Of a DNA stretch of 64,000 nucleotides, positions 33,001 through 45,000 are shown piece after piece (the stretch's first letter is position 1; each line of letters begins with the position of its first letter). Source of the DNA: an uncultured Trueperaceae bacterium. Its GTDB lineage: Bacteria > Deinococcota > Deinococci > Deinococcales > Trueperaceae. The position numbers were made by a program. The stretch spans positions 32,001-96,000 of the forward strand of contig CAWCXJ010000001.1 of NCBI GenBank assembly GCA_963799485.1, written 5' to 3'.

Positions 33001-36000
33001 GATGGCGTAGGCCAGATAATAAAACGACCCGACGCCGCGAATTCCGAAAAACGACAACGCGAACCGCTCACGCCACAGCAGTTTGGTACCTAAAAGCCCG
33101 AGCAGACCGAACAGCGGCCTCAGCAAAAAGATAACAGCGACCCCGGCCACGCCGCCGCCCCAGGTCAGGTCGCTCAAAAGCCCCCGGGCGACCGCGCCGC
33201 CGAAAATTACCAGCAGCGCGACCATCAGGAGCCGCTCACCCTGTTCGATAAAACTGTGAAGCTGGACGTGATAGCGGTGTTCGCGTTCAAAGTGCCGTAA
33301 AGCCAGCGCCGCAACGAACACGGCTAAAAACCCGTAGCCCTGTAACAACTCGGTCACGCCGTAAACGAGCAGCACGGCGGCGAGCGCGACAAAACCTTCA
33401 CCGGTCTCGGCGAGTTTGGTTTTGACCTCGGCCCGGAAGATAAGGTGCATCAAGATGCTGCCCAAAAGCCAGCCCACCGCCGCCCCGATGACGATTTTGT
33501 AGACCAGATAATAGAGCGTCCAGTCGTCCAGCCAGTTTTGCGGAGCCAGCCCGTAGGTTGCCGCTAGAATTGCCAGATAGGTAAACGGAAACGCCAGGCC
33601 GTCGTTTAAGCCCGCCTCTGAGGTGAGGCCGAAGCGCACCTCGTCCTCTTTGCCCTCACCGGGGCCACCAACCTGCACGTCCGCCGCCAACACCGGGTCG
33701 GTCGGCGCGAGCACCGCACCTAAAAGCAGCGCCGACGCCGGGGCCAAACCGATAACCCACCAGCCCAGCAGCGCAGTCGCCGCAATGGTTAGCGGCATCA
33801 CGACGGCTAAAAGCCGCCAGGTGACGCCCCAACTGCGAAAGTTGAGCGGGCGGTCTATCTTGAGACCTGCGCCCATCAGCGCGACGATCACCAGCAGTTC
33901 GGTAAAGTGTTCCGTAAAAGCGCGGTTGGCGAGCGGTTCCGGATTGGGCAGACCGAGCGGCAGGCTGAAGAGCACGATGCCCAGCCCGACGTAAACGATG
34001 GGAAACGAGAGTGCCCGACCTTGCAGCAGCCGCGGCAACCAGGCTGCGCCGATAAACGCGACGCCCAGGAGCGCCATGACGACTTCGTAGGTATCGGGCG
34101 AGCTGAGGTCTTTAAGAAGAGTGTCCATAAGGTTCGCGTGTGCGCGAAAGGCCAGCTTAACGCGGCGTAAAAGAAAGCTTGCGTCAGCTACGGCACAGAT
34201 CGAGCTGTGATGTGGTTATGACGTGGTAGTGACGTGGTTACGATGCGGTGACGACGAGGTGCGGTGCGTCGGCGGAGAACCGGCTACGGCTGAAGTCGCC
34301 GTAAAACTGAACGTGGCTGAAACCGTTTTGGATGAGGGCGCGCGCGAGTTCAAACCTGTAAAAATAGCGCTGCGTCAGCGTGCTGCGCTGCCGCCGTAAA
34401 ATCCCGGTCTCGTCCGTCGTGTCTAAAAAATAGTGTGAGGTCAGGGTCTGGGTGTCGGGGTCGTGGGTTTGCAGTAAAAACAGCTCGCTCTGCTCACCGC
34501 CGACGTGCGTCCATTCGGGCTCGAGCCGTAAAACGTTGAGCTCATTGAAGTTCGGCGTGTAGAGGTCGAAAGCAAAGCGCCCGCCCGGTGCCAGGTGCGT
34601 TTTTACGGTCTGCAAGGTCGCGTCTTGATCAGAAAGCGTGTAGGCGTGCATCAGCGTATTAAACGGGGCGATGATAAGGGGAAACTGCCGTTCTAAACGT
34701 ACTTTTCTCATATCGCCTTGAACGTAAGTCACGCTGTTTAGACTTTCAGCTCCCAACCGTACTTGACCGCGCCGAGTCATTTCAGGGGAGGGCTCGAGCG
34801 CCACGACTTCATGACCGGCCCGTGCGAGGGCGGCGGAGACGCGGGCCGTGCCTGCACCGAGTTCTAGCACCGGGCCGCCGTAATCGTCGGCTAAACGGGT
34901 GTAAAAGGGCAGGTCGTCGCGGTAGTTTCGGTATTGCAGGTCGTAAAGCTCGGCGAGGGGGTCGTAGTTCATACCGGCATATGGGCAAGTTCGGAGAGAT
35001 GACCGCGCCCCAACCGTAACACCCGCTCCGCCGCCAGTGCAAGCGCCGGACGGTGCGCCACGACGACCACAAGCCGCGTTTTGGCCTGTGTTTTTAGCAC
35101 CTCGACGAGTACCCGTTCACTTTCGTCGTCCAGACTCGCACTCGGTTCGTCTAGCAGCAGCACATCGGGGTTTCGCAAGAGGGCGCGGGCGACCGAAAGA
35201 CGCTGCCGCTGCCCCCCCGAAAGCCCCGCGCCGCTCTCGGCGAGTACGGCGTCCAGACCGCGCGCTCGTACCGTCTCCTCTAACCCAACCTCCCGTAAAA
35301 CAGCCCGGAGCGTTTCATCAGAGAAGGTCTCACCGAGCGTCAGGTTGTCGCGTAGTGAGGCGCGGAAGAGCAGCGTTTCTTGCGGGACGTAAGCCACGCG
35401 GCGCTGACGTTCTGCGTCCGGATAGCGTGACAAATCGGTGCCTGCGAGCGTTACGGTGCCTGAAGTCGGTGTCAGCAAGCCCAGCAGTAGCTTGAGCAGG
35501 GTCGTTTTGCCGCCGCCACTCGGCCCGGTCAGGGCGACGAGGCCGGGGCCGGTCAACGTAAGGGTAAGGTCGTCCAGAACGGTTTCGTGGTCGCGCCGAA
35601 ACGTTACGCCGGACAGCTGCATTCTTGGGAGGCGTGGAGGGGTGGGCTCGAGCCTAGTCTGCGCTACTTTGGGCTCCAAGTCACGCAATTCCAGAAGCCG
35701 CGCTGCGCCCGCCCGCGCACTCTGCAAATGAGCGTAGGCGCGAGGTAAAAGCTGGGCAGGCGTTGACAGCAGCGCCAAAAGCGTCACGAACGCGCCGACT
35801 TCACCCAGACTCATCGCGCCGTTTTGGACGCTTCTAGTCAGGTACAAGAGGAGTCCGGCGAGCGCCGCAAACCCGAGCGCCTGCGCGAGCGGGGTTTGCA
35901 GCGCGGCCCAGCGGGTACGGCTCGCCTGCGCCCGCGCCGCCCCCATATTCGCCCTTTCGAAACGTCCGAGTAAAAACGTCTCGAGCCCAAACGCCCGGAC

Positions 36001-42000: not shown

Positions 42001-45000
42001 ACGGCTGCTCCAGAAAACGAGTAAACCCCAGGTCGATGCTCGGCTCGAGCGGCGGGTTCTCCTCTAACGGGTCTTCGCGGGGGCCTGTTTCCGGCAGGGT
42101 TTCGGGTGTCTCGTCGGGTGGGTTGTCGGGCGCAGGTGCTGATTCAGGGGGCCGCGCTGCAGGCTGTTTTGGGCCACGCACCTTTAGGTCGACGTATTCG
42201 CTTCCCGAAATGAGGTACGGCAGACTGAGGCGCGTCAAAAGTCTCGCTTTACCCCCCACGGTCGCCTCGACGACGAGTTCGCTCGCCTGCACATTGTCTT
42301 CGATCGCGCCTAAGAGTTCGGCAAACGACAAGAGTGGACGCAGGTCGCCTTCGCCCTCGGCAGGGGTCGCGCCGCCGCGCACACTCAGCGTCACCGCGCC
42401 GCGCAGTTTGGGCGGGAGCCGCACCTTGACGCGCTCGACGACGGGCTCTGTGCGGTAGGGTTGCAGCCGCACGTTGAGAAACAACGTCGCGCCCGCCTCG
42501 AGGTTTGTACGTTCCGGAACGACTTCGACAAGCTCGGCGACGCGCTCCTGCTGCCTGACCTGAATACTCATCGAAACGCGCGTGACCTCGGCAGCCTGAA
42601 ACGGGTTTCCGGCAAAAAGGGCGAGCGGTTCGGCGGCGAGGCCGGCGGCGGCGAAAGCGAGGTCGTCCGGTGAAGCGGTCTGCTCGAGCGCCCGCACTCT
42701 CCGGCCCCCCGCGAGGGTGATGTCCCACGCCAGCTCCGCAGTACCGCCTCTACGCGCCGCTAGCAGTTCGTCGAAAGCTTGCAACGTCGCCGAGGCCAAG
42801 AGCGGCGCGTAAAGGCGTTCGTCGCCCGCGACCTCGAAGCGTTTCTCGAGCGCACCCGCGTCACCGCTAAAATGAAGCGTTACCGGGACGAACTCGGGAG
42901 CCTTGCCGACAACCCCGCTGATCGCGTAAGGTCGGTCTTGGGTCACGCTGCCAAGAATCCGCCGTCCGCTGTCGGCGAGCTTGAAAGGGGTGGTGCGGCT
43001 CGGGACGAGCGCAGTGATGTAGGCGGGCGCGAGCGCCAGCGATACCGGCCCGCGCCCTAAAAGCGGATGTCCGAACGCCCAGAACTCATCGTCCTCCAGC
43101 ATCGTCAGCGTCCCGACGGCGGCGACGGTCACGTCACCCCGGACGAGCTGCACACTGATCGCGCTCCCCGGTTGGAGCTTGAAGGCCTCGTCTTGCCGCG
43201 CGTAGGCGTTTTGGAGGCGTGTCCCTGCCACCGGGAGATTAAGGGGCTCGAGCGAGTCGGCCAACAGCGGCCCTAAAAATGCCCCCGCACGTTCCGACAA
43301 CCCTGAAATGAGCAGCGGTGTGCGGACGGGAACGATGCGGCTAAAGTCGATTTCCGGCCCGAACGCGGTGCGTTTGTCCGTTTTTGGCTCAGCACGCGGA
43401 TCGGCGCGGCGCATCGTCGCAATCGGCGTAACGAGCCCCAAGCCTCCGGTACTCTCCGGAAAGGTAAAGCTGACAGCCCCCAGGAGTGCGTCTTTGCCCC
43501 CGTAACGCAGGTAGACCGGGCTGCCGCTCATACCCGAGGCGATACCGCCGGCGTCTTCGATAACCTTCCCGCTCGCCCGAATCAGCACCAGCGGAAAGCC
43601 GGTGCCGGCGTCGTACTGGAGTGCTAAAACCTCGACGTCAAAACGTGCGATTCGGTTGCCGGCTACGGCAGTGAGGGCGTAACCGGTCTGACCGGGCTCG
43701 AGGGCAGCAAGGGGCATCGGGGTGGCGGCGCGTACGCTACCAAACATGCCCAAAAACACGGTGAGTGCGAAGAAACTTGCGCGAGTAATCATAGCCAGTA
43801 GCGGCTACAGAAACTTGTGTGCTTTGCAAGTCGGCTCAAGGCTGGCGCTCCGGAAAACGCTCGGAAACGAGGGCGTCCTCAGGTTCGGTCAGCGAGAGCG
43901 CCCTGCCGGTGCCGAGCACCACACAGTCGGCAGCGTTTTCCGCCACGACGACGGGCAGACCGGTCGCTTGCCCCAAGAGATCGGCGAGGTTACGCAGGCG
44001 CGCCCCACCGCCGGTTACGGCGATGCCCTTGTCGATAACGTCCGCAGCGAGTTCGGGGGGGGCAGCTTCCAAAACGCGCTGAACTGCCGCGACGAGCTTC
44101 TCGAGGGGATCGCGGAGCGCCTCTACCACATCGTCGGTGGTCACGACCACGTTTTTCGGCATACTGCTGGTGATGTCACGCCCGCGCACCTCGAAGCTGC
44201 CGACTTCGTCCGAACCTTTAAGTGCCGCTCCGACCCGAAGTTTGATCTCCTCGGCGGTGCGGTCGCCGATCAGCATATTTTCCTTGTGCCGGATAAAGCG
44301 CACGATGGCCTCGTCGAACTCACTCCCGGCAATTCGCAAAGATTCTGCGACGACCACGCCGCCCAAGCTGATGACGGCCACGTCGGTGGTGCCGCCGCCG
44401 ATATCGACAATCAGCTTGCCGGTCGGTTCGGTGACGTCTAGACCTGCGCCGATGGCGGCGGCGAGCGGCGCTTCGATCAGGCGTGCCTGCTTCGCGCCGA
44501 CCTCACGCACCGCCTGCAGCACCGCGCGTTTTTCGGCGTCGGTAACTCCGGGCGGAACACAGACCATAACGTTGTACCCCAAAAGACGGCCCGGCCCGCT
44601 CAGCACACGCCGAAGAAACGCTCCCAGCATCTTTTTGGTCAGCGCGTAGTCGGCAACCACGCCGTCTCGCAGCGGTCTTACCGTGACGACGCTGCCGGGG
44701 GTACGTCCGAGTAGCCGGTAGGCTTCTTCGCCGACGGCGCGCACCTCGCCGGTCTCTTTGGCAAGTGCGACGACCGAGGGTTCGCGGAGTACGACGCCCT
44801 TGCCCCTGACGTAGATTAGAACCGTTGCCGTGCCCAGATCGACGCCGATCTCCTGAGGTCTAAACATCGCGCACGGTCTCTGGCGGCGGGAGCATCATAG
44901 CGGTAAAAACAGCACCGGTAAAAACAGCGGTAACGACGAAGGTCACAGGGCAGTATACCCCGCTCGCTGAAGTCGGCCTGAAGAAATCGAAACGGATTCT

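Follow-up and report, generated by a model that had tools for sequence, protein, structure and literature searches.

An operon from an uncultured Trueperaceae bacterium appears to be the form that the early Raetz pathway takes in Deinococcota, and with moderate confidence we take its product to be a lipid A-like glycolipid. Gene content supports a truncated Raetz-type pathway, with LpxA, LpxC, LpxD, and a GT19 homolog of LpxB, from which LpxK, WaaA, and the genes for Kdo and late acylation are missing. Conservation and neighborhood likewise support an exporter of its own and a pathway that is maintained under selection. The window analyzed, a stretch of 64,000 nucleotides, carries the cluster on its minus strand at 34238–42002, in the order LpxD, LpxC, a GnnA-like dehydrogenase, FabZ, LpxA, a divergent LpxB (GT19), an ABC exporter, and a SAM methyltransferase.

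A scan of the minus-strand ORFs of the window with Pfam and NCBIfam models recovered the families and the order of the co-directional lpx cluster that the initial annotation had described (Table 1). LpxD scores 305.1 bits against TIGR01853 (cut-off 242.5) and 318 bits against NF002060, with the family match starting at residue 115 of 384, and shares 37% identity with E. coli LpxD (tblastn). LpxC reaches 215.1 bits with PF03331, covering profile positions 10–267 of 268; its TIGR00325 score of 172.7 bits falls slightly under the cut-off of 187.25. FabZ and LpxA exceed their cut-offs (NF000582, 152.5 bits against 113; NF003657, 237.1 bits against 226), and every solved relative of LpxA between E 5.7e-46 and about 1e-30 is itself an LpxA. 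Because cluster genes overlap by 4–8 bases at four junctions, a single transcription unit is suggested. The stop of the S55-like gene overlaps the lpxD start, and the N terminus of its product looks like a signal peptide; the only promoter-like site in the region on the minus strand (44922–44894) lies upstream of mreB.

Table 1. Genes of the lpx cluster and its upstream neighbors, in window coordinates
Gene or product	Length (aa)	Position	Strand	Identified by
mreB, upstream neighbor		43836..44867	-	PF06723, 412 bits
Secreted S55 (SpoIVB)-like peptidase homolog	597	41999..43792	-	PF05580, 30.3 bits
lpxD, UDP-3-O-acylglucosamine N-acyltransferase	384	40848..42002	-	TIGR01853, NF002060, tblastn
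lpxC, UDP-3-O-acyl-GlcNAc deacetylase	269	40046..40855	-	PF03331
GnnA-like GFO/IDH/MocA oxidoreductase, candidate UDP-GlcNAc 3-dehydrogenase	328	39022..40008	-	PF01408, 7bvj/7bvk
fabZ, 3-hydroxyacyl-ACP dehydratase	149	38576..39025	-	NF000582
lpxA, acyl-ACP:UDP-GlcNAc acyltransferase	256	37797..38567	-	NF003657
Divergent lpxB, GT19 glycosyltransferase	393	36606..37787	-	PF02684, hhalign, AF2 model
Cluster-linked ABC exporter, half-transporter of MsbA-like architecture	546	34969..36609	-	ABC_membrane + ABC_tran
Class I SAM methyltransferase, final gene of the operon	244	34238..34972	-	Methyltransf_25

The LpxB homolog is highly divergent. Its PF02684 match (25.1 bits against a cut-off of 22.6) is confined to a single 39-residue stretch, and phmmer finds no match to it in the PDB. 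A profile built from 20 relatives has E. coli LpxB as its sole PDB match (E 0.0026), and hhalign aligns the protein with E. coli LpxB over nearly its full length (297 columns, probability 91.7%, E 7.8e-7). The AF2 model (pLDDT 90.9) has a GT-B fold, and orthologs with 38–40% identity occupy the same cluster position in other families. Among 34 sampled members of the wider family, 28 score above the Pfam LpxB cut-off and 31 reach E <= 0.01; the nearest named Atlas clusters, a lead only, are cyanobacterial GT19 (score 0.99). These matches locate the previously "missing" LpxB of Truepera, a new assignment, and its substrates may differ from those of canonical LpxB.

The late genes went undetected, as the initial annotation had said of LpxK, WaaA/KdtA, and the Kdo genes. 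Profile searches of the 99.99%-complete genome gave no match to LpxK, WaaA/KdtA, LpxH, LpxI_C, CTP_transf_3 (KdsB), or Lip_A_acyltrans (LpxL); the KdsA score, 107 bits, is far under the cut-off of 314, and E. coli KdsC and KdsD queries gave no tblastn match in the genome at E 1e-3. LpxK and KdtA are above cut-off in none of 30 LpxC-positive genomes from four families and 26 genera. The caveat that no LpxH/I/G-type enzyme could be named was also borne out: two YaeI/LpxG-like phosphoesterases in the genome score 83–109 bits against a cut-off of 350, and proteins of this type are present in all 10 genomes sampled from the LpxC-free family, whereas two LpxC-positive genomes lack them. Since no equivalent of LpxH, LpxI, or LpxG was found in the genome, the formation of lipid X is unexplained.

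The cluster is widespread in the phylum. Of 364 Deinococcota genomes, 167 have an LpxC match at E <= 1e-5, and none of the 125 from one large family does; LpxC is present in 113 of the 127 genomes of the window's family, in addition to the window's own. These tallies, which include one unpublished genome (G325), fit the earlier counts of at least 105 of 127 and 154 of 364. The canonical gene order is kept in 58 of the 64 Trueperaceae loci with room, the same order recurs in two other families at 36–51% identity, and the cluster was found in at least three further families. mreB precedes it in loci of all four families examined, the order beside mreB being kept at 36–90% identity, and most Trueperaceae loci, as well as one other family, have an S55-like gene separating mreB from lpxD. 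The core cluster is vertically inherited and phylum-wide, with repeated loss. The ancestral layout would be mreB-(S55-like)-lpxD-lpxC-gnnA-like-fabZ-lpxA-lpxB-abc, with a methyltransferase gene next in line in Trueperaceae.

Six genomes from three Trueperaceae genera keep the genes for the GnnA-like enzyme, FabZ, LpxA, LpxB, the ABC protein, and the methyltransferase, with no LpxC at all and no LpxD that reaches its cut-off. Their ORFs are intact, and a search for gene remnants found none. The genomes are 80–97% complete; some of the absences could be assembly gaps in the five multi-contig genomes (80–95%), and the sixth is a single contig at 97%. Between one pair of these loci, dN/dS is 0.055–0.089 for the GnnA-like protein, FabZ, and LpxA, which are under purifying selection in this comparison (0.08–0.09 for LpxA and the GnnA-like protein), and pN is 0.24–0.27 against a pS of 0.76 for LpxB and the ABC protein. 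Genera that keep LpxA, LpxB, the GnnA-like protein, and the exporter and lack LpxC and LpxD are a new observation, and a tetra-acyl disaccharide is difficult to reconcile with their gene content.

The linked exporter combines ABC_membrane (123 bits) and ABC_tran (110 bits) domains. MsbA models give it 233–250 bits (MsbA_rel 249.7, MsbA_lipidA 232.6) against cut-offs of 602–780, and it is not an MsbA equivalog. In 58 of the 63 loci with room, its gene comes after lpxB. Best matches score 217–617 bits in 17 sampled genomes that have LpxC, or LpxA plus LpxB, and at most 195 bits in 22 sampled genomes without LpxC. By a threshold set after the data were seen, close homologs are confined in the sampled set to cluster-keeping genomes; the exporter co-occurs with the lpx cluster. 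The initial annotation had also proposed a full Lpt bridge with one OstA-like protein. The parts are indeed present elsewhere in the genome: an LptB ortholog (53.6% identity to E. coli LptB), three LptF/G proteins, two OstA-like proteins rather than one, and an LptD-like protein (1026/1030 aa) with no Pfam match and an LptD-like predicted architecture. However, the LptD-like protein is independent of LpxC: 34 of 35 sampled genomes have a homolog, among them Thermus-like genera and all 10 genomes sampled from the LpxC-free family. Matches to the LptF/G and OstA families likewise turn up in LPS-free control genomes of Thermus, Deinococcus, and Thermotoga. The Lpt parts thus offer no evidence for lipid A export.

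It is possible that the GnnA-like enzyme (PF01408, 100.6 bits) converts the sugar to its 3-amino form, although we lean against it. Its closest solved relative, 7bvj/7bvk (E 2.1e-35, 125.6 bits, residues 4–293), is far nearer than the runner-up at 62 bits; a passage of bioRxiv 10.1101/2024.11.05.622173 gives 7bvj as GnnA. Three of the four families examined have the gene as a fixed member of the cluster; it separates lpxC from fabZ in 58 of the 64 loci with room, and does so in two other families as well. The initial annotation had gone further, to a methylated diaminoglucose lipid, which would be a lipid A built on GlcN3N, bearing four amide-linked chains and made through GnnA, an unlinked GnnB, and the operon methyltransferase. 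The resemblance to GnnA stood, but NF040723, the NCBIfam archaeal UDP-GlcNAc 3-dehydrogenase model, gives the enzyme 173 bits where its cut-off is 450, and a scan of 84 loci found no DegT-type aminotransferase closer than 10 kb to the cluster. The genome has two DegT-family genes, yet neither is co-distributed with LpxC: the first has homologs in 260 of 364 genomes, 67 of them among the 125 of the LpxC-free family, and orthologs of the second are seen in two LpxC-free Thermus-like genomes and otherwise just in the genus of the window. The methyltransferase (Methyltransf_25, 59.2 bits) comes after the ABC gene at 50 of 63 loci, and in a second family the two are adjacent or nearly so. Its closest solved relatives include amine-acting methyltransferases: 9sot (98.5 bits), CcbJ, PCZA361.24, YunM, the cypemycin methyltransferase, and an N,N-dimethyltransferase. 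But homologs occur in 30 of 40 sampled genomes, including 10 of 10 in the LpxC-free family, and the enzyme persists at 71–72% identity in a genus that has lost every lpx gene. Methylation of lipid A is therefore unsupported, the link of this enzyme to the pathway is unproven, and the GlcN3N lipid as a whole is improbable.

A distinct N-acyl amino-sugar glycolipid, rather than a lipid A disaccharide, is a stronger contender, though still unlikely. LpxA, possibly using a 3-amino sugar from the GnnA-like enzyme, would yield an acylated UDP-amino sugar; the divergent GT19 enzyme would pass this to a different acceptor, and the linked ABC transporter would export the glycolipid. LpxC and LpxD, where present, would add only a second acyl chain. 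The extreme divergence of LpxB, the lack of LpxH, LpxI, or LpxG to supply the canonical acceptor lipid X, and the intact, selected module of the LpxC/D-less genera all point this way. The thermodynamics of the LpxA reaction is the basis for LpxC as the committing step, and an amide on a 3-amino sugar would presumably need no such step. On the other side, strict synteny of LpxC and LpxD in most genomes is the signature of a normal diacyl pathway, no aminotransferase partner was found, assembly gaps may account for some of the absences, and we know of no GT19 activity other than LpxB. It is very improbable that the cluster is a relic in decay, or arrived as foreign DNA or contamination, and is retained for essential fabZ alone. 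Its fabZ is the genome's sole match to E. coli FabZ (tblastn), genome contamination is estimated at 4.63%, and the cluster has been lost repeatedly in the phylum; but all ORFs are intact, dN/dS is well below 1, contig G+C (59.2%) agrees with that of the remaining genome, and the conserved order beside mreB contradicts this reading.

The novelty is limited, since the lpx genes of the phylum and the Kdo-free type of pathway were previously published. Antunes et al. 2016 (PMC5007114) already list LpxA/C/D for Truepera radiovictrix and LpxA–D for Meiothermus ruber and infer an LPS-bearing ancestor with LPS loss within the phylum; the caveat that a survey might list Trueperaceae as Lpx-positive was well placed. 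Opiyo et al. 2010 (PMC3087551) describe a four-enzyme, Kdo-free pathway in Cyanobacteria, and a lpxD-lpxC-fabZ-lpxA-lpxB gene cluster both there and in Dictyoglomi. Broadly as in cyanobacteria, the early steps are encoded here and the late ones are not; the Truepera operon carries its own exporter. It is new that the GnnA-like gene and the exporter are part of the ancestral cluster.

In the lipid A-like reading that we prefer, LpxA, LpxC, and LpxD would make a UDP-2,3-diacyl amino sugar, and the divergent GT19 enzyme would couple two such units, or one to another acceptor. The product would be a lipid A-like glycolipid without 4′-phosphate, Kdo, or secondary acyl chains, as is reported for cyanobacterial LPS, the structure here being deduced from the genes. 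The linked ABC exporter would flip this lipid over the inner membrane, and the phylum-wide LptB–LptF/G, OstA-like, and LptD-like machinery may then bring it to the outer membrane.

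On the minus strand, ten co-directional ORFs extend from mreB to a methyltransferase gene and were assigned with Pfam and NCBIfam models. These models bear out the eight families and the gene order that the initial annotation had proposed from lpxD onward, with weaker matches for LpxB, the GnnA-like oxidoreductase and the exporter. LpxA, LpxC and LpxD each exceed a curated family cut-off (for LpxC, that of the Pfam model); the score of LpxC on TIGR00325, 172.7, is slightly below the cut-off of 187.25. Genes overlap by 4–8 bases at four junctions, among S55–lpxD, lpxD–lpxC, oxidoreductase–fabZ, lpxB–ABC and ABC–methyltransferase, and the sole sigma-70-like site on the minus strand of the region lies upstream of mreB. 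Judged by these two features, the genes from mreB to the methyltransferase look like one operon. Among sequencing runs, none of RNA is listed for the operon, and four of DNA carry small shares of it (0.06–0.14).

Features of the mreB-to-methyltransferase region, with coordinates and family matches
Feature	Position	Strand	Match
MreB	43836-44867	-	PF06723 412 bits
Secreted S55 (SpoIVB)-like protein, 597 aa	41999-43792	-	PF05580 30 bits
LpxD, 384 aa	40848-42002	-	TIGR01853 305.1 vs cut-off 242.5
LpxC	40046-40855	-	PF03331 215.1 vs cut-off 27
GFO/IDH/MocA oxidoreductase (GnnA-like)	39022-40008	-	PF01408 100.6 bits
FabZ	38576-39025	-	NF000582 152.5 vs cut-off 113
LpxA	37797-38567	-	NF003657 237.1 vs cut-off 226
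LpxB, weak match	36606-37787	-	PF02684 25.1 vs cut-off 22.6
ABC half-transporter	34969-36609	-	ABC_membrane 123 + ABC_tran 110 bits
Class I SAM methyltransferase	34238-34972	-	Methyltransf_25 59.2 bits

Three features of individual genes may be recorded here. The S55-like gene sits between mreB and lpxD, with its stop overlapping the lpxD start; most loci of Trueperaceae, and those of one further family, keep it in this position, and the gene is missing from Meiothermus-like clusters. E. coli FabZ as query finds a single match in the genome, the cluster fabZ; this gene probably encodes the housekeeping dehydratase, a role that may help to anchor the cluster. The family match of LpxD begins only at residue 115, which points either to a divergent N-terminal domain or to a true start inside the ORF as annotated.

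The arrangement is conserved well beyond this genome. A scan of species-representative genomes with an LpxB profile yielded 137 relatives, from which 80 loci were kept; their labels read Truepera, Trueperaceae, Deinococcota or just uncultured bacterium, and some few bear other Deinococcales names. LpxD, LpxC, the GnnA-like enzyme, FabZ, LpxA and LpxB are encoded contiguously in 58 of the 64 loci with at least 5.5 kb of upstream sequence. Downstream of lpxB, where at least 3.5 kb is available, the ABC gene follows in 58 of 63 loci and the methyltransferase gene in 50. The order mreB-lpxD-lpxC-gnnA-like-fabZ-lpxA-lpxB-abc is seen again in two other families, at 36–51% identity, and a third has mreB-S55-lpxD-lpxC with two OstA-like genes a few genes later. 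LpxC is found at E ≤ 1e-5 in 167 of 364 Deinococcota genomes, a tally that takes in one unpublished genome (G325). By family the counts are 113/127 in Trueperaceae and 0/125, 17/19, 2/23, 33/68 and 1/1 in the others. Among the control genomes, E. coli, Caulobacter, Synechococcus and Bacteroides give a match, and Thermus and Deinococcus, the textbook diderms that lack LPS, are silent.

LpxB is very divergent. Its Pfam match is confined to a single 39-residue stretch, its score on TIGR00215 is 19.5 against a cut-off of 190.25, a phmmer search with it finds no match in the PDB, and E. coli LpxB as query finds no tblastn match in the genome at E 1e-3. A profile built from 20 of its relatives matches only E. 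coli LpxB in the PDB (E 0.0026, collinear), and alignment of the two by hhalign has a probability of 91.7% and an E-value of 7.8e-7 over 297 columns. The AF2 model is confident (pLDDT 90.9) and shows a GT-B fold. In a Foldseek search with this model, LpxB (5w8n, E 1.1e-9) comes only in 12th place, and UDP-GlcNAc 2-epimerases stand above it (best E 1.3e-11); because generic GT-B matches are placed higher, family membership is not settled by the fold. Among 1.84 billion representatives, the profile retrieves 1119 clusters at E ≤ 1e-3, of which 327 reach E ≤ 1e-30. From the 150 relatives listed, 34 were sampled; 28 of these exceed the Pfam LpxB cut-off, and 31 have a match at E ≤ 0.01. Taken together, the profile, hhalign, cluster-search and Pfam results indicate that the protein belongs to a large and divergent branch of GT19; its substrates may differ from those of the known enzyme. 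In the Atlas, the nearest clusters that bear a name are those of cyanobacterial GT19 (score 0.99), a finding to be taken as a lead. Ten distant relatives that were looked up comprise one Armatimonadota protein, one labelled lipid-A-disaccharide synthase and eight without names; since most are nameless, a cyanobacterial affinity of this LpxB is suggested by the Atlas lead and by nothing else.

The late steps of the pathway are missing. In the window's genome, which is 99.99% complete with 4.63% contamination, genome-wide profile searches find no match for LpxK, KdtA, LpxH, LpxI_C, CTP_transf_3 or Lip_A_acyltrans, and the control genomes respond each time. KdsA reaches 107 bits against a cut-off of 314, and E. 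coli KdsC, KdsD, LptA and LptC as queries give no tblastn match at E 1e-3. The absence of LpxK, WaaA/KdtA and the Kdo genes, on which the proposal of a Kdo-free lipid had been based, is thus upheld, and the genome does not encode a complete Kdo2-lipid A pathway (LpxH/I/G, LpxK, WaaA, LpxL/M, KdsA-D). Neither LpxK nor KdtA rises above its cut-off in any of 30 LpxC-positive genomes from four families and 26 genera (there are two sub-threshold matches for LpxK and one for KdtA), and the absence is therefore no quirk of one assembly.

If the GT19 enzyme condenses UDP-2,3-diacyl-GlcN with lipid X, a supplier of lipid X would also be needed, and no LpxH, LpxI or LpxG-type enzyme scores above cut-off in the genome. 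Two of its nine metallophosphoesterases are YaeI/LpxG-like; on NF033458, whose cut-off is 350, they reach 108.6 and 82.9 bits. Both families occur in 23 of 35 sampled genomes, including all ten from the large Deinococcota family that lacks LpxC, and are missing from two LpxC-positive genomes (G343 and G145). This distribution does not track the pathway, and the pair are unlikely to be dedicated LpxH substitutes.

The proposal of a diamino sugar goes with the GnnA-like oxidoreductase encoded between lpxC and fabZ. GnnA and GnnB, the latter an aminotransferase, form the route to GlcN3N lipid A. The best solved relative of the oxidoreductase is 7bvj/7bvk, GnnA of Acidithiobacillus ferrooxidans; the match covers residues 4–293 at E 2.1e-35, and the next entry has 62 bits. 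A preprint names 7bvj as GnnA (bioRxiv 10.1101/2024.11.05.622173). On the NCBIfam model for UDP-GlcNAc 3-dehydrogenase the score is 173 against a cut-off of 450. The locus resembles the GnnA/GnnB route in having a GnnA-aligned oxidoreductase inside an lpx cluster, but differs from it in that no aminotransferase of the GnnB type was found that shares the location or the distribution of the cluster. In 84 loci the 10 kb around the cluster contain no DegT gene. The genome holds two strong DegT genes. One, on contig C8, adjoins folD, nusB and accBC, and its homologs are found in 260 of 364 genomes, 67 of the 125 in the LpxC-free family among them. The other, on contig C6, is LegC-like and adjoins a Wzy_C ligase-family gene and a GNAT gene; its orthologs are restricted to the window's genus (78% identity) and two LpxC-free Thermus-like genomes (56–57%). 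Both were rejected as GnnB candidates on linkage and distribution. Of the diamino-glucose claim there remains a dehydrogenase that resembles GnnA, and the distribution of aminotransferases gives the claim no support. The C6 genes form a locus of their own (L016:4858-8863; C6:521858-525863), where a Wzy_C membrane protein of the O-antigen ligase family, a GNAT acetyltransferase and the LegC-like aminotransferase are encoded together; the locus may serve surface-glycan ligation and could thereby add sugars to a lipid anchor.

The two genes that follow lpxB have different histories. The ABC exporter reaches 233–250 bits on MsbA models with cut-offs of 602–780 (on TIGR02203, 232.6 vs 602) and 156.4 bits on NF008381 (cut-off 867); it is MsbA-like in architecture only and not an MsbA equivalog. 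Co-occurrence of the exporter and the methyltransferase was assessed in 40 sampled genomes. In 17 genomes with LpxC, or with LpxA and LpxB, the best match to the exporter has 217–617 bits (32–64% identity); in 22 genomes without LpxC it has at most 195 bits (28–33% identity). One genome, G292, is ambiguous, with a 332-bit match at a contig start that contains an internal TGA. Close homologs of the exporter are thus found only in genomes of this set that keep the cluster, by a dividing line that was picked after the data were seen. Because it co-occurs with LpxC, or with LpxA and LpxB, across the sampled genomes, the exporter belongs to the pathway. The description of this protein as an MsbA-like flippase holds for its half-transporter architecture, its place after lpxB and its co-occurrence; it does not extend to the scores of an MsbA equivalog.

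The closest solved relatives of the methyltransferase are 9sot, CcbJ, PCZA361.24, YunM, the cypemycin N-terminal methyltransferase and an N,N-dimethyltransferase, all of which presumably act on amines. Its homologs are found in 30 of the 40 genomes. They include proteins at 71–72% identity in a genus that has lost all its lpx genes and proteins at 44–50% identity in all ten sampled genomes of the LpxC-free family. This distribution gives no support to the proposal that the enzyme methylates lipid A.

Much of an Lpt bridge can be recognized. The genome encodes an LptB ortholog with 53.6% identity to E. coli LptB, three LptF/G proteins, two OstA/LptA-like proteins and, adjoining two of the LptF/G genes, an LptD-like protein (1026/1030 aa) without a Pfam or NCBIfam match. 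The Pfam LptD model (PF04453) has no match in the genome; it is a narrow model, which responds only in E. coli and Caulobacter of 14 controls. In the AF2 model of the LptD-like protein, which is of moderate confidence (pLDDT 78, pTM 0.47), residues 19–117 match LptA (2r1a_C) with Z 12.1 and an rmsd of 1.5 Å over 93 aligned residues. For the barrel, the best 37 matches listed by Foldseek are all LptD (best E 2.2e-13), with TM-scores of 0.2–0.3; in the VIA comparison LptD ties with other barrels. The predicted architecture, an LptA-type N-terminal jellyroll followed by a very large β-barrel, would be that of LptD. Relatives of the protein carry the name LptD both in Truepera radiovictrix and in Thermus sediminis. 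The resemblance to the LptB2FG-LptC/A-LptDE bridge therefore lies in LptB, LptF/G, the OstA-like proteins and a jellyroll-plus-barrel protein, but this barrel lacks a Pfam LptD match, has low TM-scores and is found without lpx genes.

Homologs of the LptD-like protein are present in 34 of 35 sampled genomes, among them all ten of the LpxC-free family, Thermus-like genera and cluster-less Trueperaceae, and the LptF/G and OstA families respond in the Thermus, Deinococcus and Thermotoga controls. Since the LptD-like protein occurs in relatives without lpx genes, and LptF/G and OstA in LPS-free controls, the machinery is not specific to lipid A in this phylum. The bridge may carry the cluster's lipid; its presence is uninformative about lipid A, and the weight that the initial annotation placed on it is withdrawn.

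In the window's genome the third LptF/G gene stands alone beside a RelA/SpoT gene (L014:3904-7367; C8:247904-251367), away from the pair of LptF/G genes upstream of the one for the LptD-like protein. The next gene after the latter in the LptF/G operon encodes a 413-aa protein without a Pfam or NCBIfam match (L013:5063-6304, minus strand, contig C8); it could be an LptE analogue. In one genome from a different family of Deinococcota, lpxD-lpxC is followed after a few genes, with no change of strand, by two OstA/LptD_N-like genes (L098:6366-8164, minus strand), the sole physical link between Lpt and lpx genes that was observed.

How does the cluster compare with known pathways? Relative to the Raetz pathway of E. 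coli, LpxA, LpxC, LpxD and FabZ are clear homologs (LpxA, LpxD and FabZ at 33–46% identity) and LpxB is a remote full-length homolog by hhalign, but five of the nine enzymes of that pathway, which are LpxA, C, D, H, B, K, WaaA, LpxL and LpxM, have no match here, the exporter is no MsbA equivalog and LpxB is not found by tblastn. A closer parallel is described by Opiyo et al. (2010, PMC3087551): Cyanobacteria and Dictyoglomi have lpxA, C, D and B only, clustered as lpxD-lpxC-fabZ-lpxA-lpxB, and cyanobacterial LPS is without Kdo, heptose and phosphate. By the definition given there, the cluster is of the cyanobacterial four-enzyme type, with the same order interrupted by the GnnA-like gene and with LpxH, LpxK, WaaA and a late acyltransferase missing. 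It differs in the placement of the GnnA-like gene between lpxC and fabZ, the ABC exporter after lpxB and mreB upstream; it also belongs to another phylum, in which some Trueperaceae lineages have dropped LpxC and LpxD. On balance, the cluster probably works much as the four-enzyme pathway of cyanobacteria does, and it has an exporter of its own.

The lineages that dropped LpxC and LpxD are the best argument that the product need not be canonical lipid A. LpxC is lacking in 14 Trueperaceae genomes, and LpxD is above cut-off in none of them, yet seven keep the LpxB gene. One of the seven is an 86%-complete assembly from the window's genus; the other six represent three genera and include a 97%-complete single contig. 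At three such loci (L025, L058 and L068) the genes for the GnnA-like enzyme, FabZ, LpxA, LpxB, the ABC protein and the methyltransferase are intact; L025 has in addition a GT2 glycosyltransferase gene between the last two (L025:12866-13657). No remnants of lpxC or lpxD are found at these loci, only cross-matches of LpxD to lpxA. In one pair of loci that share a rearranged layout, dN/dS is 0.089 for the GnnA-like gene, 0.082 for LpxA and 0.055 for FabZ, and these three genes are under purifying selection in the pair; for LpxB and the ABC gene dS is saturated, and pN is 0.24–0.27 against a pS of 0.76. Because the loci are intact and dN/dS is low, the module is maintained without its committed step. 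One reading would be that in at least three Trueperaceae genera the GnnA-like enzyme, FabZ, LpxA, LpxB and the ABC protein work without LpxC and LpxD to make a mono-acylated, probably N-acylated amino-sugar glycolipid that is not lipid A. Such a product would explain the lack of an LpxH-type enzyme in the phylum, but we consider it unlikely, and a four-enzyme pathway of the cyanobacterial kind remains the preferred reading.

Part of this picture has been published. In the survey of Antunes et al. (2016, eLife, PMC5007114), Truepera radiovictrix DSM 17093 is listed with LpxA, LpxC and LpxD and "no homologue" of LpxB, and Meiothermus ruber DSM 1279 with LpxA-D (Supplementary file 2); the accession spacing in the table agrees with the gene order found here. 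The survey gives the Deinococcus/Thermus ancestor an outer membrane with LPS, which disappeared in some members. A paper of 2026 (PMC13018214) still describes the phylum as without canonical LPS and with incomplete or diverged Lpt systems. A literature search outside subscription journals turned up no chemical work on a lipid of this kind from Truepera or Meiothermus, which does not show that none exists. The outer-membrane surveys of Sutcliffe (2010), Taib (2020) and Witwinowski (2022) may list the same genes. The case for novelty is accordingly reduced, since gene presence and the ancestral-LPS inference are already in print (PMC5007114). In the passages and table consulted, that survey is silent on the missing late steps, the GnnA-like enzyme, the exporter, the methyltransferase and the lineages that lack LpxC and LpxD. 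What is new and testable is the exporter link, the divergent Truepera LpxB recovered here, of which the survey had none, and the lineages without LpxC and LpxD.

The value of the cluster lies in its chemistry and in two leads, a cluster-linked exporter and lineages that keep the remainder of the module without LpxC and LpxD. Were the mono-acyl reading true, the "lpx" cluster of Deinococcota would be a two-tier glycolipid pathway, and its GT19 enzyme would take substrates besides lipid X. Truepera and Meiothermus can be grown in culture, and with their minimal lipid A-type operon they allow the product of a Kdo-free four-enzyme pathway to be tested directly outside the cyanobacteria, and also the cargo of the Lpt machinery in cells without lipid A.
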